32,000 nucleotides of DNA from positions 1,211,343 to 1,243,342 of the forward strand of contig CP002278.1 of the NCBI GenBank assembly GCA_000166095.1. The letters are read 5' to 3'. Shown here in pieces: positions 2,414 through 30,337 of this stretch; position 1 is the stretch's first letter, and each line of letters begins with the position of its first letter. The translations under genes and the position numbers were made by a program. The notes below the pieces were generated by a model that worked only from the letters and a program-made list of their open reading frames with translations, was not told where the DNA came from and made no database searches. The stretch comes from Methanothermus fervidus DSM 2088. Lineage in GTDB: Archaea; Methanobacteriota; Methanobacteria; DSM-2088; Methanothermaceae.

Positions 2414-3417
2414 AATATAAGATGTATAATGAACTTCAAGACCAACCAAAATCTATTATAAATACTTTAAAACATGAAAAGTCCCATATGAAGGAAATTT
2501 CTGAAAAATTTAAAGATTTTGACAAAATATATCTTGTTGGATGTGGTAGTTCCTTGTCAACTTGTTATTCTGTCAGAGATGCATTGTCAATGCTCTATGA
2601 CACAAATATCGAAGTATTTACAGGATATGAGTTTTTTTATCATAAAAAAATTTCAAATAAAAATGCAGGAGTAATTTTTACCTCACAATCTGGGGAAACT
2701 GTAGATACAATAGCTGCTCTCAGAAAATCACAAAAAATAGGAATTGAAAATGTGGTAATAACAAACGAAAAAAATAGTACGATGGCTAAAGAGTGCAATG
2801 ATGTCATATTAACAAGATGTGGTCGTGAAAGTGCAATTGTGGCAACCAAAACATATGTAACACAACTTTTCTCACTTTATTATATATTGTTTGGAATGAA
2901 AGAAAATAAAAAAATAATAAAGGAGTTAGAAGCTCTGCCAAAAATTCTTAGGAAGATTATTGATGAGAGTGAGGAAAAAAACAAAATATTAGCTAAAAAA
3001 TACAAAGATAAAGAAATATTTTATTGTATTGGCAGTGGACCAAATTATGGTCTTGCATATAAATTGGCAATGACTATGTTAATGGAAGGTGCCCACAAAC
3101 ATGCATGCCCTCTATATTCTGGTGAATTTAAACATAGCTTAGTTGAAAGAATTGAGAATGGAATTCCAGTAATAATATTAAATGCAGATTTTCCAGGCGA
3201 TAAATTAACAATTCAGGCACTGGAATTCTGTAAAAAAGTAGGTGCTGACGTATTATTATATGATATGAAGGATTATTGCGACATAGATAAATTACTTTCG
3301 CCATTTGTTTTAGTTTGTCCTTTAGAGTGGTTTGTATATTATTTGGCACACTATAATGGTAAAGATCCAGGTAGTACGCGCCATATAGATAAAATAAGAA
3401 ATAATGATGATTTATAA
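2410..3417 (+). CDS. SIS-domain sugar-phosphate isomerase/deaminase (GlmS isomerase-domain-like, no glutaminase domain)
   Basis: Two SIS signatures: [13 protein letters not shown]...[15 protein letters not shown] in the first half and [20 protein letters not shown] in the second. There is a 4-nt ATGA overlap with the upstream gene. Confidence 0.75.
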
Positions 3418-3431
3418 GGGGATGTGGAAAT

Positions 3432-3632
3432 ATGGGTAACCTTAGGTATTTAGTTATTTTAATTCTTTTTATAGCGGTTATTGCCTTTATTTGTGGTTCA
3501 GTAGTTGGAATTGTTATCGGAATTTCTGAAAACTTCAAAAATTATGGAACCATGAAAATAAACCAATACAATATAACATTTCCATTTCATCTAACTAAAG
3601 TTATGGAAAATTCTTTCTGCTTAGAAAAATAG
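3432..3632 (+). CDS. Small hypothetical membrane protein
   Basis: 66-aa ORF with one N-terminal TM helix (LVILILFIAVIAFICGSVVGIVIGI). GGGGAT lies about 8 nt upstream of the ATG. It fills an otherwise empty gap. Confidence 0.35.
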   Translation: MGNLRYLVILILFIAVIAFICGSVVGIVIGISENFKNYGTMKINQYNITFPFHLTKVMENSFCLEK

Positions 3633-3643
3633 GAAGGGATAAA

Positions 3644-4822
3644 TTGCAAAGGGTAAATGGTGGAGTATGCACAGTCAAAAACATTAAAGCATCAGGATGT
3701 AAAAATGGAAAACATGGTGTTGGAATTTTATTAACAAAAAATTGTGAGGCTGCAGGGGTTTTTACAAAAAATAAAATAAAAGCAGCCCCTGTTAGATTAA
3801 CAAAAAAAGTATTAAGAGATGGGAAACTTTCTGCAATAGTTGCCAATAGTGGCAATGCAAATTGTTTTACAGGTAAAAAAGGCATGGAAGATGCTATAAA
3901 AATGCAGGAAATAACTGCTGAGAAACTAAATTTAGATCCAAATGAGGTTGCAGTTGCATCAACAGGTATAATTGGTTTAAGAATGCCAATGGAAAAAATA
4001 ATTCCTCTTATAAATAAAGCATCTTTAAAATTAAATAATTCCCCAAAAGCTTCAAGAAAATTTGCAAAAGCAATAATGACAACAGATACATTTCCAAAAG
4101 AGTTCGCTGTTGAATTCAGGCTTAAAAATGGTGAAAAATGTAGAATTGGTGGAGTAGCTAAAGGTGCTGGTATGATATCTCCAAATATGGCTACTATGTT
4201 ATCCTTTATAACCACAGATATAGATGCTAGCGCAGATGAATTATATGAGTCTCTAAAGATTGCTGTAGATCGTAGTTTTAATATGGTGGTTGTTGATGGC
4301 GATCAAAGCACTAATGACATGGTATTAATTTCTTCAACTAGAGAATCTGGAGAAATTGATGAAAAGTTTCAAACAGCTTTAAATTTTCTTTGTGAAGAGT
4401 TAGCTAAGATGATAGCAAAGGATGGAGAAGGTGCAACAAAATTCATAGAAGTTATAGTTAAAAATGCAAAATCGTCTGAAGATGCAAAGAAAATTGCCAA
4501 ATCCATTGTGTCTTCTCCACTTGTTAAGACAGCTGTTTTTGGATCTGATCCAAATGTAGGTAGAATAATAGCAGCCATAGGATCAACAAATTGCGATGTT
4601 AAGGAAGAAAAAATAAATATAAGATTAAAATCTGTTACAGATGTTAACATTGTTAAAAATGGTGAAATAATAAAAAGTAAAATACCCTATGCAAGAAAAG
4701 TAATGAATGAAAAAGAAATTAAAATTATTGTGGATTTAAAGTTTGGAAATTCCTCAGCAAAGGCATATGGTTGTGATTTAACATATGATTATGTTAAAAT
4801 AAATTCAGAATACAGTACGTGA
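3644..4822 (+). CDS. argJ: Bifunctional ornithine acetyltransferase / N-acetylglutamate synthase ArgJ
   Basis: ArgJ family pattern throughout. The autoprocessing site PNMA|TMLSFITTD has its nucleophile Thr codon at 4193-4195. TTG start is preceded by AGGAAGGGA. Confidence 0.92.
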
Positions 4823-4826
4823 TAAA

Positions 4827-5708
4827 ATGGCAAAAAAAATAGAAGTTCTTATTGAAGCATTGCCATACATCAAGAAATTTCATAAGAAAAAAATGCTAAT
4901 AAAATACGGTGGACATGCAATGATAGATGAAGATATAATGAATTCAACTGCAAGAGACATTGTTTTACTTAAATATGTAGGAATAGAGCCTGTTGTTGTG
5001 CATGGTGGAGGTCCAGAGATATCTAGGGCTATGAAAAAAATGGGTAAAAAACCTAAATTTATAGACGGATTACGAATCACTGATGAAGAAACAATGGATA
5101 TTGTTAAAATGGTCTTGGTTGGAAAAATAAATACTGCAATAGTTGGTACTATATGTTTCCATGGAGGCAAGGCCGTAGGATTATCAGGAAAAGATGGCCA
5201 ATTGTTAATTGCAAGAAAAAAAGCTCCTCAAGTAATTACAGATAAGAGTGGTAAAAAAAGAAAAATAGACCTTGGCTTAGTTGGTGAAATCGAAGAAATA
5301 AGACCATCTATAATAAATTTACTTACAGAAAATGATTATATTCCTGTTATATCCCCCGTGGGCGTAGATAGAAATGCTAACACTTTAAATTTAAATGCAG
5401 ATACAGTAGCTGGTGAAATTGCAAGTAAAATAAATGCAGAAAAATTGATAATTTTAACTGACGTGCCTGGGATATTGGAAGATCCTAAAGATCCAGAAAC
5501 ACTCATTAAAAAACTTACAGTAGAAGAATTACAAGAATTGATTAAAAATGGAACTATAAGAGGAGGAATGGTTCCAAAGGCGTTGACATGTATTGAAGCT
5601 TTGAATTCTGGAGTATCTTCAGCTCATATAATTGATGGACGCATTAAACATTCATTGTTGTTGGAGATATTTACTGATGAAGGAATTGGAACTATGATAG
5701 TTCCATAA
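4827..5708 (+). CDS. argB: Acetylglutamate kinase ArgB
   Basis: Amino-acid kinase family: [29 protein letters not shown]. Sits directly downstream of argJ. Confidence 0.92.
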
Positions 5709-6681: not shown

Positions 6682-6791
6682 ATTCTCAACCAAATTTTTT
6701 ATTCATAACTAAATTTAAGGTCAGTTGTGAAAATAAGTATATAGTAACTTATGTGAAGTGGTAATGTAATGGATGGAAGTAGGTGAGTCAC

Positions 6792-7121
6792 ATGAAAGTT
6801 CATTTACAAATTTTTGTTGAGATAGAAAATTTGGGACGTGTAATAAATATACTTTCTAAGGAAGGAGTTACAGGATTTTATTTAATTGAATATAGGGGAG
6901 TATCTCCACAGGAATGGGAAGGTTTTACAATTCAAGAAGATCCAAAATCTGTTGTATCATTTATTAAAGATGTTGCACAAAATGCTATACTGGTATCTTG
7001 TGTAGTTGATAAAGAAAAGGCATATGATATTAGAAAAGAAATAAACAGGAAATTAAGCGATGTAAAATATACAATAATGGAAATTCCAATAAAAAGCATT
7101 GTTGTAAATTTTGCTGATTAG
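6792..7121 (+). CDS. P-II-like (GlnB-fold) small protein, function unknown
   Basis: MKVHLQIFVEIENLGRVINILSKEGVTGFYLIEYRG parallels the PII N-terminus (beta-alpha-beta, then the T-loop position). GGTGA lies 5 nt upstream of ATG 6792. The ORF track starts at GTG 6783. Confidence 0.5.
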   Translation: MKVHLQIFVEIENLGRVINILSKEGVTGFYLIEYRGVSPQEWEGFTIQEDPKSVVSFIKDVAQNAILVSCVVDKEKAYDIRKEINRKLSDVKYTIMEIPIKSIVVNFAD

Positions 7122-7130
7122 GTGATAAGT

Positions 7131-7982
7131 ATGAAAGCTGTGATACCTGCGGCGGGATTAGGTACTAGACTTTTACCAATTACTAAAGCGCAGCCAAAGG
7201 AAATGTTACCTGTTTTTGATAAACCGGCTATTCAATATGTTGTAGAGGAGGCTGTGGCAGCAGGAATTGATGATATACTTATAATAACTGGTAAAGGTAA
7301 AAGATCAATAGAAGATCATTTTGATAGATCTTTTGAATTAGAATATTTTTTAAAAAAGAATAATAAAAATGAGATGCTTAATGAAATTGAAGAAATTTCA
7401 GAATTAGCTGATATTTATTATGTAAGACAAAGAGAACAAAAAGGATTAGGGGATGCTATATATTGTGCGCGTAAGCATGTTGATGGAGAAACATTTGCTG
7501 TATTGTTGGGAGATACAATAACATATTCTAAGACACCATGCATTAAAAAATTAATGGAGATGTATAAGATATACAAATCCAGTATTGTAGCTGTTGAAGA
7601 GGTTCCAAGAAAAAAAGTAAGTAGGTATGGAATAATAAAGGGAAAAGAATTGAAAAAAAATATTTATTTGGTTGAAGACATGGTTGAAAAACCTAAAATT
7701 GAGGAAGCACCGTCAAACCTAGCTATAATTGGTAGATATATCCTTGAACCAGAAATATTTGATTGTATAAAAGAAACAGGTCCAGGAGTTGGTGGTGAAA
7801 TACAACTAACAGATGCAATGAGATTGCTAGATAGAGTATATGCTTACAAGTTTTCTGGGAAAACATATGATATTGGAAATAAAATAGATTGGCTAAAAAC
7901 TTCTATAGAATTTGCACTTAGAGAAAAAGATATTAAAGAAAAACTAAAACCTTGGCTTTCAAAAATTATTAAACAAAACTAA
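7131..7982 (+). CDS. galU: UTP--glucose-1-phosphate uridylyltransferase
   Basis: KAVIPAAGLGTRLLPITKAQPKEMLPV, GLGDAI and VEKP motifs. GGTGA (7121-7125) lies 5 nt before ATG 7131. The ORF track starts at GTG 7122. Confidence 0.92.
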   Translation: MKAVIPAAGLGTRLLPITKAQPKEMLPVFDKPAIQYVVEEAVAAGIDDILIITGKGKRSIEDHFDRSFELEYFLKKNNKNEMLNEIEEISELADIYYVRQREQKGLGDAIYCARKHVDGETFAVLLGDTITYSKTPCIKKLMEMYKIYKSSIVAVEEVPRKKVSRYGIIKGKELKKNIYLVEDMVEKPKIEEAPSNLAIIGRYILEPEIFDCIKETGPGVGGEIQLTDAMRLLDRVYAYKFSGKTYDIGNKIDWLKTSIEFALREKDIKEKLKPWLSKIIKQN

Positions 7983-7988
7983 TAAAAA

Positions 7989-8062
7989 TCCCGGCTGCCG
8001 GATTTGAACCGGCGACCCGCGGATCTACAGTCCGCCGCTCTACCAGACTGAGCTAAGCCGGG
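7989..8062 (-). tRNA. tRNA-Tyr (anticodon GTA)
   Basis: Hand-folded 74-nt cloverleaf: acceptor CCCGGCT/AGCCGGG, D arm GCTC-AGTCTGGTA-GAGC, anticodon arm GCGGA-CTGTAGA-TCCGC, T arm GCCGG-TTCAAAT-CCGGC, discriminator A. The C1:G72 pair is typical of archaeal tRNA-Tyr. No encoded CCA and no intron. Confidence 0.93.
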
Positions 8063-8099
8063 ATATCTTTACTCACAAGATATTATAAAAAAGTTCTTA

Positions 8100-8116: not shown

Positions 8117-9307
8117 TCATGTAATCAATGCATAAATCAATGACAATATTATTGCTATAACACCTAATTCCCATCTTCCAATTTGCCATCCAATAAAAGT
8201 CATTAAAAAGACAAAAATAAAAATCAAAATTCCTTCTCCCTTCCTATTCAATGCAAAATTTATTAAAGTTCTAGTGAAATCTGAAGGAATAAAATAAGCA
8301 TAAGTACCATTTGCAAGATTAAAAACTACTGTAGAGCTTGGATGCCAAAACTTTACATCATCAGATAAATATGCATTTTCACCAGCTTCTTTCCTAGTTT
8401 TACCTACTCCAGCCCTTATTTTAACATCGTTTACTTGACTTTCCCAAATTGCTTCTAATATTGCTTGTAATGCTAAATCTTTTGTTGGCATACTTGCAAC
8501 CAAATCATCGCCACCTTTACGATAACCTTCTATTTTTCCTTCTCGTTCTTCGATTCTTTTCTTTATTTTTTCCATCACTAAACTTAAAAAGTCTCTACCA
8601 TATTTCTCAATAAATTTTGTGGAATTTATTACATCAAGAAAAAGATAATTGCCATGAGTAGAATATGTTTCACCAATTTTTGAAATTTTTGATGGAAAGA
8701 GAAGTGCAAATTCCCCACCAAATTTTGTAAAAGCCACTCCTGGTATTTCACCGACTTCATTAGTTAACTTTATAGCTCTTTCTACAGCTGCTGCAGCGGT
8801 CATTCCTACGGCAGCCCGCACATTTAAATTTTTCTCACCACCCAATGCTATAAGCTTTATTGCTATTTTTATTGCTTCATTTTTTGATATTAATCTTGCT
8901 AATATTTCATTAGGACCTTTTTCTACAATTTCTCCTCCTTCATTTTTGATTGTATCAATAAATTCATTCACATCAGCTTTTTCTGGAAGTTCAACATATA
9001 GATATCTATCACTGCCAACAATTATATCACTTAAAAGTGCACGTTCATTTATATCTTTCTCAGGTTTTTTTAATTCAACAAATCTACCATTTCGAGGCAA
9101 AGCAAAATTTAGTTCTTCAACTAAACTTTCAAATATGCTATTAGAATCAATTTTTGCCTTTTTAAGTTCTATCAACATAGTTTTTGTATCGTTCATCATT
9201 TTAACATATTTTTCTTCGTCTTCTGTAGTTGGACGATAATCAGTCCCAATACTAATAATCCTTTTTCCAATAAAAAAACTTAAAATAAAGCGTAGGATCC
9301 TACCCAT
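8117..9307 (-). CDS. Membrane-anchored protein with GGDEF/Cas10-palm-like GGDD nucleotide-cyclase signature
   Basis: YLFLDVINSTKFIEKYG(x27)RKGGDDLVASMP...VKIRAGVGKT matches the GGDEF palm layout in both order and spacing (metal Asp codon 8633-8635; GGDD codons 8504-8515). Additional GG[DE] motifs: NEGGEIV and KFGGEFALLF (8708-8719). The C-terminus has two TM helices (ILIFIFVFLMTFIGW, LGVIAIILSLIYALI). ATG directly follows the upstream TAG and is preceded by GGAGGA. Confidence 0.6.
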   Translation of the reverse strand: MGRILRFILSFFIGKRIISIGTDYRPTTEDEEKYVKMMNDTKTMLIELKKAKIDSNSIFESLVEELNFALPRNGRFVELKKPEKDINERALLSDIIVGSDRYLYVELPEKADVNEFIDTIKNEGGEIVEKGPNEILARLISKNEAIKIAIKLIALGGEKNLNVRAAVGMTAAAAVERAIKLTNEVGEIPGVAFTKFGGEFALLFPSKISKIGETYSTHGNYLFLDVINSTKFIEKYGRDFLSLVMEKIKKRIEEREGKIEGYRKGGDDLVASMPTKDLALQAILEAIWESQVNDVKIRAGVGKTRKEAGENAYLSDDVKFWHPSSTVVFNLANGTYAYFIPSDFTRTLINFALNRKGEGILIFIFVFLMTFIGWQIGRWELGVIAIILSLIYALIT

Positions 9308-10327
9308 CTACTTTTGTCCTCCTTTTTCCAATGTAACCTCAAATTCACCAGGATTTTCAAGTAATACACTAGGTCTCACAGCAACTATTGGAAATCTCCA
9401 ACTACCAATTCTTGCGGCAATTGTACTTGCTATATTCCTGGAATTCCTTTTTACCAAAGCATAATCATGATTATTAACTGTTATATTGACATTGTATGGT
9501 GATTCTTCCATTACATCTTCTGAAGGCAACACATTTAATTCAAAATGGTTTTTCCGCATGAAAATATCATTTCTAACAGCTACAAGTGGACTATATTCTA
9601 ATTCTAAATTATCTCTGACAGTTACAGCTATGTTGCCAGCATATTTAACAACTTTTTTATAATCTTGTGGATTAACAAGAACAAATATTATATAGTTTCC
9701 TTCTTCAATATTTTCAACCATCTCTAGAACATTTTTTAAGACAGGAATTTTCATGAACACTTCTTCAACTTTTGACTCTAATCCTTCCTCATAAACCTTA
9801 ATTCTACTTATAGCTTCTTTAGCTATTGCTATGCCACTAAGCTTTTTCCCATGTCTTACATTATAGTAATCAAAACCTTTGTCTTTAAATTTGTTTAAAG
9901 CATCTAAAGTGATTTCTTTTATTATGTCTTTGACCTTCCTTACTTTTGGAATCTTTCCAATTACTATTTTATTATTTTCAAATGTGTAGGGAACTCTTCT
10001 ACTATCAATATTTTTAAATTCATCTCTAAACTCTCTAAAATTGTCATTTGACAATATTTTTGCATCTTCTTCTTCTGCCAACTTTAAAATATAATGATCT
10101 GCATTTGTACCTGCAGGTACTTCCTTAATTATCCCCTTTTTTATGTATTCCTTATATTTCTCTTCATCATCAATCTTATGTTTCAAAGAAGCGTCAGCAA
10201 CGACTATCGGTTTAAAACCAAGTTTTTTTACAGCCTTTATAGCTTCGATAATTCTTTTCATTATCGCCTTATTCTGATGGTGGGCAATATTTGATGCATC
10301 TATAATCATTTTCAATGGATCACCCAT
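9308..10327 (-). CDS. NYN-domain (Zc3h12a/N4BP1-like, PIN-fold) ribonuclease fused to an uncharacterised ~200-aa C-terminal domain
   Basis: MIIDASNIAHH...KPIVVADASLKHK...GIIKEVPAGTNADHYILKLAEEEDAKILSNDNFREF follows the RNase_Zc3h12a motif order, with acidic residues at the expected positions. An alternative start is ATG 10309. Confidence 0.75.
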   Translation of the reverse strand: MGDPLKMIIDASNIAHHQNKAIMKRIIEAIKAVKKLGFKPIVVADASLKHKIDDEEKYKEYIKKGIIKEVPAGTNADHYILKLAEEEDAKILSNDNFREFRDEFKNIDSRRVPYTFENNKIVIGKIPKVRKVKDIIKEITLDALNKFKDKGFDYYNVRHGKKLSGIAIAKEAISRIKVYEEGLESKVEEVFMKIPVLKNVLEMVENIEEGNYIIFVLVNPQDYKKVVKYAGNIAVTVRDNLELEYSPLVAVRNDIFMRKNHFELNVLPSEDVMEESPYNVNITVNNHDYALVKRNSRNIASTIAARIGSWRFPIVAVRPSVLLENPGEFEVTLEKGGQK

Positions 10328-11063
10328 TTTTTCTTTTATATTTACCTAATATTTTCATTTTTCCTTCTACTTCACATAATTTTACTTTTATTTCTTTCTC
10401 ATTCACCAAATACACATTATAACTATTTGGATTTTTTGCTCTAAGTGATGGAGATGAAACTGTACCTGCAGTTGCAAAAACACAACCTTCTAAATTCCAT
10501 GAATATGGTACATGTCTATGTCCACAAACAACAAGATCCACATCGTATTTAACTAAAGATTCTAGAATATCACCAGCGTCAAGAAGTACATTTCTTTCTC
10601 GTCCTGTTTTTGGAACGGGGATGATATGATGATGCAAGGCTACAATTTTGAATTTATTTTTTGCTTTTTTCAATTCTTTTTCAAGCCATTTTTGCTGTTC
10701 TCTTCCTATCTTTCCACAATCTAAATCAGGTTCACTACTGTCAAGTCCAATAACAACAAACTTTTTATTCTTATTTTTAAGAACACCTGATCTTGGACCA
10801 ATAACTTCTTCAAATACTTCATAACCTACGTGTCTAGCATCATGATTTCCTGGTACAGTTATAGTAGGTATAATCTCTGAAATTTCATCTAAATATTTTT
10901 TTGCTTCTATAAATTCCTGATAATAACCATTGTTTGTTATATCTCCACTTACAATAACTACATCAGGGCGGATGTTTTTAACCTGGTTCAGAGCTTTTTT
11001 TAATAATTTTTCCTTAAATTTGAATTCACCCACATGAAAATCTGAAAGGTGGGCAATTATCAA
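10320..11063 (-). CDS. Calcineurin-like metallophosphoesterase, Icc/CpdA-like (possible cyclic-nucleotide phosphodiesterase)
   Basis: Motif series LSDFHVG, SGDITNNG, PGNHD, ALHHH, CGHRH. The TTG start immediately follows the NAC stop codon, with GAGG upstream. Confidence 0.8.
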   Translation of the reverse strand: MIIAHLSDFHVGEFKFKEKLLKKALNQVKNIRPDVVIVSGDITNNGYYQEFIEAKKYLDEISEIIPTITVPGNHDARHVGYEVFEEVIGPRSGVLKNKNKKFVVIGLDSSEPDLDCGKIGREQQKWLEKELKKAKNKFKIVALHHHIIPVPKTGRERNVLLDAGDILESLVKYDVDLVVCGHRHVPYSWNLEGCVFATAGTVSSPSLRAKNPNSYNVYLVNEKEIKVKLCEVEGKMKILGKYKRKNG

Positions 11064-15760: not shown

Positions 15761-16516
15761 TCAATTAATGAATTTTACATATTTAAGAAGATCAATTGCA
15801 TTTTTAACCTCAGATTCTAAATTTAAAGATAGATATGCTTTTTTACCCAATGAAAAACTTGAGGATAATATCATTTGTTTTTTGCCAATTAATTCAACCC
15901 CATTGACTGGTGTATGACCTACAACCATTGCATTACATCCAACTTTCTCTAGAAATCTATCTATATCAGAAAGTGAGTAATCACCATATCTATTCCAAAT
16001 TAATTCATATAAGATGGGATCATCATAATCTTTAACTTTCATAATATCTTCAATACTTTCTATATATCTAGAAGGACCTGCATGGGAAATAAATACTTTG
16101 TTAGAGGTCCTAACAGCTAAATGAAATTTCTTAAAAAATGTTTTAAACTCATCTAATATTTCTTTCCATCCATCTCCAAATTTACTTTTCAATAATCTTT
16201 CAAACATTATTGTGAGATTTATACCACCTTTGTAGATGGGAATTCCTGTAATCACAGACCATTCATGATTACCAAGTAGAAGATATATATTTTTTTCGCT
16301 CTTAAGTAAGTCTCGAACTTTGTATATAATTTCGACAGATCCATCTTCCTTTAAATCCATTGCATGGATTAGATCACCTGTAAATACAAAATATTCGTGC
16401 TCACCACTTTCCCAAATTTTAATATATTTATTAAAATCTTTTAAATTTCCATGAATATCAGTAACTACTAAAAGCTTACCATTATTTGATAATTCAATTA
16501 GAGGATCTTTCATCAA
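15761..16516 (-). CDS. PPP-family/ApaH-like metallophosphoesterase (Ser/Thr phosphatase-like)
   Basis: VVTDIHGN, FTGDLIHA, LLGNHE, ISHAGP and VVGHTP motifs in canonical order. Confidence 0.8.
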   Translation of the reverse strand: MMKDPLIELSNNGKLLVVTDIHGNLKDFNKYIKIWESGEHEYFVFTGDLIHAMDLKEDGSVEIIYKVRDLLKSEKNIYLLLGNHEWSVITGIPIYKGGINLTIMFERLLKSKFGDGWKEILDEFKTFFKKFHLAVRTSNKVFISHAGPSRYIESIEDIMKVKDYDDPILYELIWNRYGDYSLSDIDRFLEKVGCNAMVVGHTPVNGVELIGKKQMILSSSFSLGKKAYLSLNLESEVKNAIDLLKYVKFIN

Positions 16517-27813: not shown

Positions 27814-28386
27814 ATGAAAAGGGAGGTGAAAACAATCTCTATTCTCTTAAAAAATCGACATATAGTATTACTCTCCCTGTTAATTGTCGTGGCAATGTTT
27901 TTTGTAGGAGTTGTTAATGCAACAAACATGACTAACGACTCCATAAGAATCCCATCACAAACGAATATCGATCCTACTGTAAATATATATGGAACAGTTT
28001 ATAATGGTTCATCAAATTATGGATTGGAAAATTGTACCATAAAAATTTTTGATTCAGGAAACAATTTTATAACACAAACAGTGACAGGACCTCAAGGTTC
28101 TTATTATGTCAGTTTCAATAGTTCAGAAACAAGATTTTATGTGACAGCCCTCAAACCAGGTTATTTGTCCTACACTAGAGAAATAAACGTGACTTCTAAT
28201 GTAACTAATCCTGCTGACCCTAACCTTTATGGTATTGCAAATTTCAGATTATATCCTTTACCAGCTTACAGCGGAAATGCGTCAAGCTTTCTTTTGAACG
28301 TGGGTGCGATTCCAAATGGTTTTATTAAATTTACAAGCAGCAAGATCAAATGCATCAGTAAACAGCCAAGTACCTCCCTACAGTAA
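27814..28386 (+). CDS. Secreted surface protein, N-terminal part (signal peptide + carboxypeptidase-regulatory-like beta-sandwich); probably the 5' portion of a frameshifted larger gene
   Basis: Signal peptide MKREVKTISILLKNRHIVLLSLLIVVAMFFVGVVNA. CarboxypepD_reg-like IYGTVYN...CTIKIF...TQTVTGPQGSYYVSF...YVTALKPGYLSY. The last ~20 codons look non-native. Confidence 0.7.
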   Translation: MKREVKTISILLKNRHIVLLSLLIVVAMFFVGVVNATNMTNDSIRIPSQTNIDPTVNIYGTVYNGSSNYGLENCTIKIFDSGNNFITQTVTGPQGSYYVSFNSSETRFYVTALKPGYLSYTREINVTSNVTNPADPNLYGIANFRLYPLPAYSGNASSFLLNVGAIPNGFIKFTSSKIKCISKQPSTSLQ

Positions 28387-30337
28387 AGGTGAAGCCACGC
28401 CATTAGAGGTCATATTACTTAGTGGTAATTTGTTAGAAGGATTATTAAATGTAAATTCAACTGATGATCAAGGTTTAGTAACCGGAGGAATAGACCCCAA
28501 CAATTTGCCTCCTTTGTTACGGGATTTAGGAATTAGTGCGGGAGCTCTACAGGGAGCTGCTTATTCAAGTACCAATCCCCCACAGGCAAGTGCAAATAGT
28601 AGTGTTGCAGGTTTGCAACTAACTTTACTGAATCTCGTGCAACTCATAAACTTAGGACTTATAACTTCAAATAGTAGTGTGTCACCGGATTTTAACACCG
28701 GAACTTTATATACTTCTTCACGTACTGGCACTATCGATACAATATCAGTTCTTAATGGAACACTTACGATCGATGCTTTAAATGTCAATGCAACGGCCAT
28801 TGCCAATGGTAAACCTGGAGGAGCTTCTGCACTTTATAATTGGAGTGTAGCTGACATAAAACTCTTAGGTACAAGTATCTTGGACCAGTTAAGATTAAAT
28901 GGGTTTGTCGAATTGCCAGGAGTACTAAGGATAGCGATAGGCAACAAAACTGAGGTGGTTTCTCCTGATGGTACCTACGCATTTGCTTGGGGAGATGCCC
29001 TAATCATAGAGCTTTTCAATGTCTTGCCCGGATATCAACTAATAACTTTAACCCTTGGCCATGCTGAAGCAACAGCAAGCGTGCCTTTAGGCGGTTTAAA
29101 ACCAGGATTAGACGTTGGGATTAAAAAACTCGTGAATACTACAACACCTAATTACATGGATGAAGTTGAGTTTACATTAGTTGCATATAACAATGGTCCT
29201 GGCAATGCTTCAAATGTTCAAGTAGTTGATCAATTGCCTAACGGTCTTAAATGGATTTCTGATGATTCTAATGGATCATATAACCCTTCAACAGGTATTT
29301 GGACAATAGGTAATCTAAATAATGGTAGCAGTGTAACATTACACATCAAAGCTCGTGTAATTATTTCCAACACCACCATTACTAACCTTGCTAGTATTAC
29401 AACCCCAGATGAAGACATGAATCCAGACAATGACAAAAGTTTAGTAGTATTATATGTTCCACCAGCAGCAGATCTCTCAATAGAGAAGAATGCAAGCGCA
29501 ACAACTGCAAGACTTGGAGACATAGTTACATTCACAATAACAGTCATGAACAATGGACCAGACAATGCAACAGATGTGAATGTAACAGATATGCTACCTT
29601 CTGGACTTGAATTTGTAAGCTGGAATGCAACAAAAGGAACCTACAATTCAACATCAGGAATCTGGAATGTTGGAAATCTAACAGCTGGAGAGACAGCAAC
29701 CTTAAATATAACAGCTAAGGTAACTGCATCAAACACAACAATTGTGAATGTTGCAAATGTGACAAGCAGCATCTATGATCAGAACACAACAAACAACAAT
29801 GCTCCAGTTACAGTAACTGTAACAGCACCAACAAACTTCACACTAAGCAACTTGACAGTCACTCCAACATCTGGAGTTGCACCACTAACAATAACTGCAA
29901 CTTGTAACATCACAAACACTGGAGGAACAGCTGGAAACTACACAGCAGTACTCTACATTAATGGTTCAGCAGTTGCAAATCAAACAATAACACTAGGTCC
30001 GGGAGAGACAACAACCGTGAACTTCACTTACACCTTAACACAACCAGGAACCTACAACGTTACAATAGGAAACTTAACACCAGTTACAGTAACTGTAACA
30101 GCACCAACACCTATACCAACACCAACGAAACCACCTGGAAAACCACATGTTCTAAAACCACCAAAACTAAAGATAACTAAGCCACCAAAACCAACAAAGA
30201 TCAAATTCTTAAAGAGAGGAAAAGAAAAGATAGGTAAAAAGAAAATTAAGATACCAGTTACTGGAGTGCCTCTAACTTATCTATTACTTGGATTAATCCT
30301 GATAATCCTTGGACTATCAGATAGAAGAAAAACATAA
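28304..30337 (+). CDS. Surface (adhesin/S-layer-like) glycoprotein, C-terminal part: two DUF11 repeats, CARDB-like domain, Pro/Lys/Thr linker, IPVTG + TM + basic tail
   Basis: DUF11-type repeats (VEFTLVAYNNGPGNASNVQVVDQLPNGL..., VTFTITVMNNGPDNATDVNVTDMLPSGL...). CARDB-like LTITATCNITNTGGTAGNYTAVLYINGS. C-terminus IPVTGVPLTYLLLGLILIILGLSDRRKT. No signal peptide of its own. The frame opens only at 28298. Confidence 0.75.
   Translation: MRFQMVLLNLQAARSNASVNSQVPPYSKGEATPLEVILLSGNLLEGLLNVNSTDDQGLVTGGIDPNNLPPLLRDLGISAGALQGAAYSSTNPPQASANSSVAGLQLTLLNLVQLINLGLITSNSSVSPDFNTGTLYTSSRTGTIDTISVLNGTLTIDALNVNATAIANGKPGGASALYNWSVADIKLLGTSILDQLRLNGFVELPGVLRIAIGNKTEVVSPDGTYAFAWGDALIIELFNVLPGYQLITLTLGHAEATASVPLGGLKPGLDVGIKKLVNTTTPNYMDEVEFTLVAYNNGPGNASNVQVVDQLPNGLKWISDDSNGSYNPSTGIWTIGNLNNGSSVTLHIKARVIISNTTITNLASITTPDEDMNPDNDKSLVVLYVPPAADLSIEKNASATTARLGDIVTFTITVMNNGPDNATDVNVTDMLPSGLEFVSWNATKGTYNSTSGIWNVGNLTAGETATLNITAKVTASNTTIVNVANVTSSIYDQNTTNNNAPVTVTVTAPTNFTLSNLTVTPTSGVAPLTITATCNITNTGGTAGNYTAVLYINGSAVANQTITLGPGETTTVNFTYTLTQPGTYNVTIGNLTPVTVTVTAPTPIPTPTKPPGKPHVLKPPKLKITKPPKPTKIKFLKRGKEKIGKKKIKIPVTGVPLTYLLLGLILIILGLSDRRKT
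29804..29833 (+). repeat. 30-bp exact direct repeat, copy 1 (encodes PVTVTVTAPT linker)
   Basis: ccagttacagtaactgtaacagcaccaaca is identical to 30080-30109. Confidence 0.9.
30080..30109 (+). repeat. 30-bp exact direct repeat, copy 2 (encodes PVTVTVTAPT linker)
   Basis: Identical to 29804-29833. Both copies sit at domain boundaries of the surface protein. Confidence 0.9.

Follow-up and report, generated by a model that had tools for sequence, protein, structure and literature searches.

The minus-strand gene at positions 8117-9307 of the stretch analysed here, a window of 32,000 nucleotides from the archaeon Methanothermus fervidus DSM 2088 (contig CP002278.1, positions 1,211,343 to 1,243,342), encodes a protein of 396 residues. 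We read this protein as a palm protein of the nucleotide-cyclase superfamily, divergent in sequence, confined to certain lineages and built as a single-chain pseudo-heterodimer, and give this reading a probability of roughly 55%. By exact-sequence look-up the protein is WP_013414340.1 (ADP78062.1; UniProt E3GX67), which carries the database label 'conserved hypothetical protein', and the G+C content of the window (31%) is in keeping with M. fervidus DSM 2088. As far as sequence can tell, the most likely description of the protein is that of a predicted pseudo-heterodimeric nucleotide cyclase. Its parts are the following.

8117-9307, minus strand: whole coding sequence, 396 residues (open reading frame list; exact-sequence look-up)
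9017-9268, minus strand: N-terminal alpha/beta domain, residues 14-97, 16-97 in the model (secondary structure of the model; conservation)
8672-9016, minus strand: N-terminal, degenerate palm copy (N-copy), residues 98-212 (hhalign against the C-copy; shared topology; Methanopyrus alignment)
8273-8662, minus strand: C-terminal, catalytic-looking palm copy (C-copy), residues 216-345 (invariance; profile and Foldseek matches; codons)
8618-8623, minus strand: S229-T230 of the phosphate loop
8519-8521, minus strand: R263, at the position of the class III substrate Lys
Residues 298-302 of the C-copy: strand beta4 motif R298-A-G-x-G302
8123-8242, minus strand: C-terminal membrane hairpin, two transmembrane helices at about residues 356-376 and 380-395 (hydropathy; model helices; published prediction)

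Two palm copies in one chain

A first-pass annotation, made from the DNA letters alone, had described in this frame a palm signature in which a metal-binding Asp, a Gly 12 residues later and a GG motif about 41 residues later are spaced as in the GGDEF protein PleD. Upon re-reading of the frame all the strings quoted there were found at the given residues. Re-translation places the codon of D225 at nt 8633-8635 and those of G265-G266-D267-D268 (GGDD) at nt 8504-8515, and the spacing is confirmed, with G237 at D225+12 and G266 at D225+41. In an alignment of 25 Methanobacteriales orthologues (45-55% identity), conservation is highest in the C-copy, where 33 of 130 positions are invariant. D225 and G265 to D268, which had been singled out as probable signature residues, are indeed present in 25 of 25 sequences, and so are S229, T230, F232, G237, E260-G261-Y262, P274, K276, R298, G300, G302, R305 and E310. 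Most of these residues are also retained in the Methanopyrus homologue, which is about 33% identical over the domain. Judged by its conservation, the D225/GGDD pattern is not a product of chance. Hereby, the loop between beta1 and alpha1 reads F-[ILMV]-D-x-x-[DN]-S-T, which is the form found in class III cyclases (FxDIxGFT) and not that of GGDEF domains. The second metal motif reads GGDD[LFV] across the orthologues, position 263 is basic (R or K) and falls on the Lys column of Ma1120, and position D225+8 is a nearly invariant Ile (I233).

The nucleotide-cyclase superfamily (SSF55073; Gene3D 3.30.70.1230) is defined by a ferredoxin-like beta-alpha-alpha-beta-beta-alpha-beta palm whose acidic metal ligands are located on beta1 and in the hairpin formed by beta2 and beta3. 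An AlphaFold2 model computed from the alignment (mean predicted local distance difference test, pLDDT, 85; predicted TM-score, pTM, 0.76; every segment at least 50) shows this palm topology; in the sequence alignments D225 and D267/D268 fall at the positions of the metal-binding Asp residues. The model consists of a short N-terminal helix, a beta-alpha-beta-alpha-beta-alpha domain, two palm units and two C-terminal helices. Both palm units (residues 102-203 and 220-339) have an identical beta-alpha-beta-beta-alpha-beta-alpha-beta-beta order of elements. In the C-copy, strand beta4 (297-302) is followed only two residues on by a helix (305-317), and the dimerisation arm of class III cyclases is absent. 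Together with the Foldseek matches described below, this confident model corroborates the earlier assignment of a palm domain of this superfamily.

Comparison of the two palm segments by hhalign (residues 98-212 against 216-345) gives a probability of 96.2% with E=2.2e-9 over 109 columns, and 97.6% with E=3.6e-12 over 111 columns when Methanopyrus sequences are included in both profiles. At the level of sequence comparison an internal duplication is thereby proven, and the tandem arrangement of a degenerate N-terminal and a catalytic-looking C-terminal copy, put forward in the first-pass annotation, is confirmed by significant self-similarity. The repeat register proposed there was seven residues off, however: the partner of GGDD is not NEGGEIV, which forms strand beta2 of the N-copy and corresponds to EREGKIE in the C-copy, but GPNE (E134 pairing with D268). 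Further equivalent pairs are E106 and D225, S141-K142 and T275-K276, VRAAVGMT and IRAGVGKT, and E176-R177 and E310-[R/N]311. Likewise, the string KFGGEFALLFP had been taken for a third motif of the GG[DE]EF kind; it turned out to be the terminal beta-hairpin of the N-copy, and its counterpart in the C-copy is NLANGTYAYFIP.

In the N-copy, E106 and E134 sit at the two metal positions, E106 being replaced by Thr in Methanopyrus, and helix alpha1 is about 13 residues shorter than in the C-copy. When the N-copy profile was searched alone against the PDB no relative was found, the matches being just a designed repeat protein and GST kappa, neither of them meaningful. Read from its residues, the N-copy is degenerate. 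Nevertheless, neither Methanobacteriales nor Methanopyrales show any variation at S141, K142, T170, E176, R177, K195 and E199, which suggests that the N-copy contributes to a shared site rather than acting as a mere spacer.

Upstream of the two palms, a short amphipathic helix (residues 2-13) precedes the N-terminal alpha/beta domain, in which many polar residues are invariant (T22, E31, N39, E88 and S93). Its profile matched no PDB entry or family, and comparison with either palm copy at the hhalign stage showed no similarity. A third repeat is thus ruled out, since the domain resembles neither palm copy. A CARF domain was also considered for this segment and rejected: a single PADLOC match to CARF3 (E=0.011) was not repeated in 13 other members, the domain profile met no CARF protein in the PDB, and the match was judged to be due to chance.

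At the other end of the chain, Kyte-Doolittle windows of transmembrane grade are centred on residues 365-370 and 385-387, the model has two helices here, and a published prediction for WP_013414340.1 gives two transmembrane segments and no signal peptide (Lupo et al. supplement, PMC11915815). The C-terminal membrane tether of the first-pass annotation is therefore upheld. Because R354 and K355 directly precede the first transmembrane helix and the loop that joins the helices is only about 3 residues long (377-379, within GRWEL), the soluble domains are presumably cytoplasmic, with a tail that would dip into and out of the membrane. This loop is the sole part of the protein that would face the cell exterior. 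One sublineage of Methanobacteriaceae (sequences P0048 and P0049) has a 10-residue insertion, LMGRDLGGYV, between the two transmembrane helices (alignment columns 385-394).

Relationship to known families

Single-sequence searches of Pfam, NCBIfam and the PDB returned nothing usable; matches to influenza HA2 and BES1_N were noise, and a match to mCpol was faint (E=0.087). Neither Guanylate_cyc (PF00211) nor GGDEF (PF00990) matched the full protein in Pfam, and both also failed on 14 isolated C-domains, for which no Pfam family at all was found at E<=10. With profiles, relatives became detectable. The full-length profile found only class III cyclase domains in the PDB, namely Rv1900c (1ybt, E=0.012) and Ma1120. 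A profile of the C-domain that included Methanopyrus matched Rv1900c (1ybt) with E=5.3e-5 and four Ma1120 entries with E=0.005-0.009, and neither search returned a Cas10, mCpol or GGDEF chain. In the alignments to 1ybt and 4wp8, D225 and D267 are paired with the first (FTDIVGST) and the second (GD) metal Asp, S229-T230 with the Ser/Thr phosphate loop of class III cyclases, and R263 with the purine-specifying Lys of Ma1120. The F-x-D-x-x-[DN]-S-T loop and GGDD thus align column by column with the metal and phosphate-loop residues of class III enzymes.

Curated models gave weaker results. Among the 14 C-domains, NCBIfam LipJ cyclase was found in three (best E=0.0056), mCpol (NF033576) in one, with 15.7 bits against a cut-off of 40 (E=0.017), and GTP cyclohydrolase IIa (NF002587) in one, with 12 bits against a cut-off of 306. 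PADLOC gave nothing significant, its match of the Methanopyrus protein to PycC having E=0.03. Weak as they are, the LipJ and PycC matches also favour a cyclase.

The structural comparison agrees with the profile searches. Foldseek returned 47 matches in the PDB at E<=1e-3, most of them class III cyclases: the fused adenylyl cyclase 9 (AC9), soluble adenylyl cyclase (soluble AC), OaPAC/bPAC, Ma1120, Rv1900c (TM-score 0.55 relative to the target) and CyaB, with guanylyl cyclase Cya2 next at E=1.1e-3. Probabilities to many of these cyclases are 0.96-1.00, and TM-scores relative to single-domain targets are about 0.5. The non-cyclase matches are the engineered ferredoxin-fold proteins 4ney, 4hhu and 4nez and the GTP cyclohydrolase III of M. 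jannaschii. No structure of a GGDEF, Cas10 or mCpol protein is among the best 50 matches.

The closest detectable relatives of the C-copy are therefore the catalytic domains of class III adenylyl and guanylyl cyclases. With Rv1900c of M. tuberculosis (1YBT, 1YBU) and Ma1120 of M. avium (4WP8) it shares the palm core, in which beta1 and the beta2-beta3 hairpin each bear a metal Asp, the phosphate loop F-x-D-x-x-x-S-T, a basic side chain where class III enzymes have the purine-specifying Lys, and R-x-G-x-G on beta4; class III enzymes are also its best matches in profile searches and head the Foldseek list by E-value. The chain as a whole resembles fused pseudo-heterodimers such as C1-C2 of mammalian AC (6R4P) and soluble AC (4CLK) in that two domains are fused in tandem, one of them degenerate, and it shares membrane attachment with class III cyclases. 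In this respect the likeness of layout to pseudo-heterodimeric class III cyclases that had been noticed in the first-pass annotation is supported. Unlike class III cyclases, however, the M. fervidus protein lies under every curated threshold including that of PF00211, has no dimerisation arm in the model and no identifiable Asn/Arg pair, and reads GGDD in place of x-G-D. Its anchor is a C-terminal hairpin instead of an N-terminal or six-helix transmembrane module, it carries an additional N-terminal alpha/beta domain, and the relative orientation of its palms fails to superpose on C1-C2 (whole two-palm chain against AC9 or soluble AC: TM-score 0.20-0.24, root-mean-square deviation, rmsd, about 20 Å). 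Because the class III dimerisation arm is absent and a Cas10-style GGDD motif is present, we conclude that within the nucleotide-cyclase superfamily the domain represents a deep branch of its own, which is nearest to class III and is not a GGDEF domain.

Partner gene and operon

The gene is the last of a minus-strand operon, in which it follows genes for a methyltransferase, archaeosine TGT, NAC, a metallophosphoesterase and an NYN protein. The elements closest to it are listed here.

9308-10327, minus strand: partner gene, 339 residues, NYN RNase plus conserved domain (Pfam PF11977; PDB matches; locus survey)
9317-9322, minus strand: GGAGGA Shine-Dalgarno sequence inside the last codons of the partner (read from the sequence, coordinates checked)
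10320-11063, minus strand: metallophosphoesterase of the GpdQ/Rv0805/CpdA (class III phosphodiesterase-like) branch, overlapping the start of the partner (Pfam Metallophos)

The stop codon of the partner (TAG, 9308-9310) abuts the ATG of the cyclase-like gene (9305-9307), and the cyclase-like gene is translationally coupled to it. Residues 7-130 of the partner (nt 9938-10309) form an NYN/Zc3h12a-type RNase domain (Pfam PF11977, E=2.4e-23) with PDB matches to ZC3H12 and KHNYN. They are followed by a conserved domain of about 200 residues (133-331, nt 9335-9931; mean column identity 79%). Neither the sequence nor the profile of this second domain matched any Pfam or PDB family, and it appears to represent an undescribed domain family. 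In a model of the partner the NYN domain is good, and the C-terminal conserved domain has a pLDDT of 30-50. Its conservation exceeds that of the cyclase-like protein itself.

Of the 85 loci fetched, 84 have the partner directly in front of the cyclase-like gene and in the same orientation. The remaining locus (L071, positions 2697-5194, from a metagenome-assembled genome, MAG, of Methanobrevibacter) has a P-loop-containing open reading frame of 204 residues and another of 125 residues in its place; neither frame is related to the partner, which makes the locus a true exception. In M. kandleri the gene that adjoins on the upstream side encodes 238 residues without a Pfam match (L085:5283-5999); the product aligns to residues 133-331 of the partner with E=2e-30 and lacks the NYN domain. 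Such a partner without NYN implies that the ancient module consists of the 200-residue domain and the tandem-palm membrane protein, and by this comparison the NYN RNase would be a fusion that belongs to the Methanobacteriales.

The phosphoesterase at 10320-11063 matches GpdQ (1.6e-11) and Rv0805 (4e-7) in the PDB and is also near Icc; against NCBIfam CpdA it scores 59.6 bits, under the cut-off of 225. It lies upstream in 71 of the 76 loci with sufficient upstream sequence and is absent beside the cyclase-like genes of Methanopyrus and Methanosphaera. Its linkage is thus looser than that of the partner, and a role as a signal-degrading enzyme is possible, the arrangement being suggestive only. 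The setting as a whole, arcTGT-NAC-phosphoesterase-NYN, is a housekeeping operon kept across genera and not a defence island.

Several further features were noted in the window. A tRNA-Tyr gene (GTA; 7988-8063, minus strand; ARAGORN; Rfam 70 bits) follows the cyclase-like gene in the same orientation at a distance of 53 nt and may be co-transcribed with the operon. On the plus strand (6783-7982), two genes adjoin, the first ending and the second starting at 7121/7122: the first encodes a PII-like protein (PF10126, 'homolog of nitrogen regulatory protein PII', E=5e-47) and the second a sugar-nucleotidyl transferase (PF00483); this pair converges on the tRNA-Tyr gene and the cyclase operon. A second calcineurin-like metallophosphoesterase (15761-16516, minus strand) is more YfcE/ApaH-like than CpdA-like, and its position is unrelated to the operon. 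Finally, the segment 28001-30000 has a G+C content of 0.386 compared to about 0.31 elsewhere; it overlaps an open reading frame of 677 residues (28304-30337, plus strand), and no Rfam family was found there.

Distribution and earlier annotation

The homologue clusters number about 500, each of about 400 residues, all from Methanobacteriales, unannotated and without a precomputed Pfam domain. A profile search of 1.84 billion representatives gave 54 matches at E<=1e-3, comprising one full-length cluster, one distant full-length relative, which is that of Methanopyrus, and fragments. In a species-level scan with one genome per GTDB species 197 relatives were found, the best 80 of which come from Methanobacterium, Methanothermobacter, Methanobrevibacter, Methanosphaera and termite-gut lineages, all of them Methanobacteriales genera. 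All Methanobacteriales that were examined have the family, as does Methanopyrus, and according to these searches it appears restricted to Methanobacteriales and Methanopyrales, i.e. to the methanogens with a pseudomurein wall.

Two loci labelled 'Candidatus Bipolaricaulota bacterium' (L032) and 'Methanomicrobiales archaeon' (L034) have copies with 54% and 50% identity to WP_013414340.1; this level is typical of Methanobacteriales, and the loci are probably mis-binned MAG contigs. Of two unusual metagenomic sequences, P0139 (447 residues) has residues 69-135 of the family fused to unrelated sequence, and P0152 (251 residues) has the last hairpin and the transmembrane tail behind a vWA-like N-terminus. 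Both could reflect chimeric assembly, pseudogenes or real domain shuffling.

Part of this is already public in the form of one-line annotations, namely the superfamily label, the transmembrane anchor, the NYN pairing and the lineage restriction. The M. kandleri homologue (AAM01324.1; Q8TZ32) is annotated as 'Predicted diverged member of adenylate cyclase 3 family'. A full-text search for that phrase found no paper, and the arCOG paper is silent on the family. In a screen that sought orthologous groups peculiar to archaea with pseudomurein (Lupo et al., mSystems 2025, PMC11915815), cluster D consists of OG0001213, a Zc3h12a-like NYN ribonuclease, and OG0001214, a 'Nucleotide cyclase' with more than one transmembrane segment. 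OG0001214 is the same family, including WP_013414340.1 according to the supplement, in which Gene3D 3.30.70.1230 and SSF55073 are assigned to the Methanopyrus member only, the entries of the Methanobacteriales members being blank. The authors judged cluster D to be probably unrelated to pseudomurein and allowed for a role in 'nucleic acid metabolism'. Because both the M. kandleri annotation and the published orthologous group exist, the novelty claimed for the protein in the first-pass annotation was overestimated. In the literature searched we found no account of the duplication, of degenerate and active copies, of a residue-level comparison of class III with GGDEF and Cas10, or of the ancestral partner without NYN; nor did we find experimental work on the family, the sources giving labels only.

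Proposed function

cAMP was measured in 1986 in Methanothermobacter, Haloferax and Saccharolobus (then Sulfolobus) solfataricus (reviewed in PMC10249747). According to the same review, published in 2023, no archaeal enzyme is known that makes, degrades or senses cAMP, and the archaeal CYTH 'class IV' candidates were shown not to be cyclases. A cyclase is an attractive reading of the present protein because cAMP has been measured in Methanothermobacter while its archaeal synthase, phosphodiesterase and receptor are unknown (PMC10249747). In a further-reaching reading, to which we attach a low probability, the protein could be the cyclic-nucleotide synthase of pseudomurein methanogens, responsible for the cAMP of 1986 or for another cyclic mono- or oligonucleotide, and could form a second-messenger module with its partner and the phosphoesterase.

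In the reading that we favour, the C-copy would take up a nucleoside triphosphate together with two divalent metals, for which D225 and D267/D268 would serve as ligands; S229-T230 would contact the phosphates, and R/K263 would lie close to the base. The C-copy would then make a ribose hydroxyl attack the alpha-phosphate, which would yield a cyclic nucleotide on the inner side of the membrane, in the simplest case a purine 3',5'-cyclic nucleoside monophosphate such as cAMP. The degenerate N-copy, having lost the first metal ligand family-wide, would pack on the C-copy and complete or regulate the site, by analogy with the C2 domain or the degenerate site of fused class III cyclases. The invariant K142, R177 and K195 of the N-copy could be the source of the missing class III residues. 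The C-terminal hairpin would keep the assembly at the cytoplasmic face of the membrane, and the obligately co-expressed partner would regulate the enzyme or be regulated by, or respond to, it. The adjacent CpdA/Rv0805-like metallophosphoesterase would be a candidate for degradation of the signal.

Several observations weigh against such a cyclase. PF00211 is unmatched even at E<=10 and no curated cyclase model passed; the dimerisation arm is missing from the predicted structure; and the class III transition-state Asn and Arg, which we could not locate, lie together with the substrate Asp beyond the alignable region, as the sequence alignments end at beta4. A canonical head-to-tail composite site is unproven because the two palms superpose poorly on C1-C2 of AC9 and soluble AC or on GTP cyclohydrolase III. 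The phosphoesterase is part of a widely conserved housekeeping order (arcTGT-NAC-...) and does not accompany the Methanopyrus gene. Lastly GGDD, judging by its residues, has the form of the Cas10/mCpol motif, which leaves an oligonucleotide product possible.

The last point leads to an oligonucleotide cyclase of the Cas10/mCpol type, which we regard as rather unlikely. Here the degenerate and the GGDD palm would hold the acceptor and the donor ATP, like Palm1 and Palm2 of Cas10, and the product, a linear or cyclic oligoadenylate or a cyclic dinucleotide, would be sensed by the partner domain and control the NYN RNase. The invariant GGDD, the minimal palm without the class III arm, the tandem order of a degenerate copy followed by an active one, the faint mCpol match and the obligate linkage to a second gene with a nuclease and a conserved domain all speak for a likeness to Cas10 or mCpol (NF033576; Panoptes). 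The match to mCpol remains far below its cut-off and occurs in one of 14 members, however, no such structure was met in the Foldseek or PDB profile searches, and the phosphate loop is of the class III kind. Moreover, a CRISPR, CARF or SAVED context is absent (the CARF3 match was discarded as chance, and searches with the partner domain gave no relative), the gene is a universal single-copy housekeeping gene, and the Methanopyrus partner has no nuclease. Of the likeness to Cas10 seen in the first-pass annotation GGDD and the missing arm stand, as a resemblance that is real but weak.

A palm enzyme with a role other than signalling is distinctly unlikely. It could be a hydrolase like GTP cyclohydrolase III, or a nucleotidyltransferase that, in concert with the NYN RNase, processes or repairs RNA at the membrane. 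GTP cyclohydrolase III/IIa of M. jannaschii (MJ0145, 2QV6) is an archaeal single-chain tandem palm of the same superfamily and is found in the Foldseek list (E=3.8e-4), and the faint match to GTP cyclohydrolase IIa points in the same direction. Several neighbours are RNA-related (archaeosine TGT, tRNA-Tyr, the NYN partner, and an RNA-ligase-like gene near the Methanopyrus copy), which accords with the 'nucleic acid metabolism' allowed for cluster D (PMC11915815). By contrast, the IIa match is confined to one member and falls far short of its cut-off, the two-domain superposition on 2qv6 is poor (TM-score 0.33, rmsd 15 Å), and MJ0145 is soluble with hydrolysis chemistry, a membrane anchor being unusual for such enzymes. 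The NYN domain is furthermore dispensable in Methanopyrus, and neighbours besides the partner vary between lineages.

It is also improbable that the protein is an inactive pseudo-enzyme whose palm pocket merely binds a nucleotide or metal, the protein serving as a membrane receptor or scaffold for the partner. In its favour, neither the Asn/Arg pair nor the dimerisation arm that are canonical for class III was found, one of the two copies (the N-copy) is degenerate as it stands, and the sequence has diverged to an extreme degree from all active families. Against this, D225, D267-D268, S229-T230 and a basic residue 263 are invariant across two orders, and the C-copy is more conserved than any other part of the chain.

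The headline of the first-pass annotation, a GGDEF-type diguanylate cyclase that makes cyclic di-GMP (c-di-GMP), is largely refuted. The shared superfamily, the spacing of the first Asp, Gly and GG motif as in PleD, the GGDDF variant in some orthologues and the minimal armless palm with a helix right after beta4 speak for it. The GGDEF label has to be withdrawn nonetheless: PF00990 found none of the 14 domains, GGDEF proteins are missing from the top structural and PDB profile matches, and the phosphate loop is of class III type. The guanine-binding residues of PleD, which we take to be N335 and D344 on alpha1-alpha2 with the Asn at D+8, have no equivalents, Ile233 occupying the Asn position. 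In addition, c-di-GMP has not been found in archaea (PMC10249747). A function linked to the pseudomurein wall, such as envelope-homeostasis signalling or nucleotide activation of a wall precursor, is hardly credible despite the membrane location, the strict confinement to Methanobacteriales and Methanopyrales and the recovery of the family in the pseudomurein screen, given that the gene is unlinked to pseudomurein clusters A or B, that cluster D was judged probably unrelated (PMC11915815), that the two orders may simply share ancestry, and that the partner is an RNase fusion.

Implications

If the protein were inactive or no cyclase, it would be a lineage marker already catalogued in the literature, and to specialists who know the Methanopyrus annotation its superfamily membership will be no surprise. 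With a degenerate and an apparently active palm in one chain, GGDD, no dimerisation arm and a transmembrane hairpin at the C-terminus, its architecture blurs the boundaries between class III, GGDEF and Cas10/mCpol proteins and bears on how these families diverged. If the proposed cyclic-nucleotide module is real, a membrane-bound tandem-palm cyclase would control an NYN RNase through a previously undescribed sensor domain of about 200 residues, with the phosphoesterase as off-switch. Such logic would parallel signalling from Cas10 to CARF nucleases, and yet be universal, single-copy and unrelated to defence. Since the residue classes for two metals are kept, a CpdA/Rv0805-like phosphoesterase adjoins and an RNase-bearing partner is coupled, the protein represents a concrete candidate for an archaeal cyclic-nucleotide enzyme, a specific lead on an old question that would be cheaply testable by recombinant assays and in the existing genetic system of Methanothermobacter.

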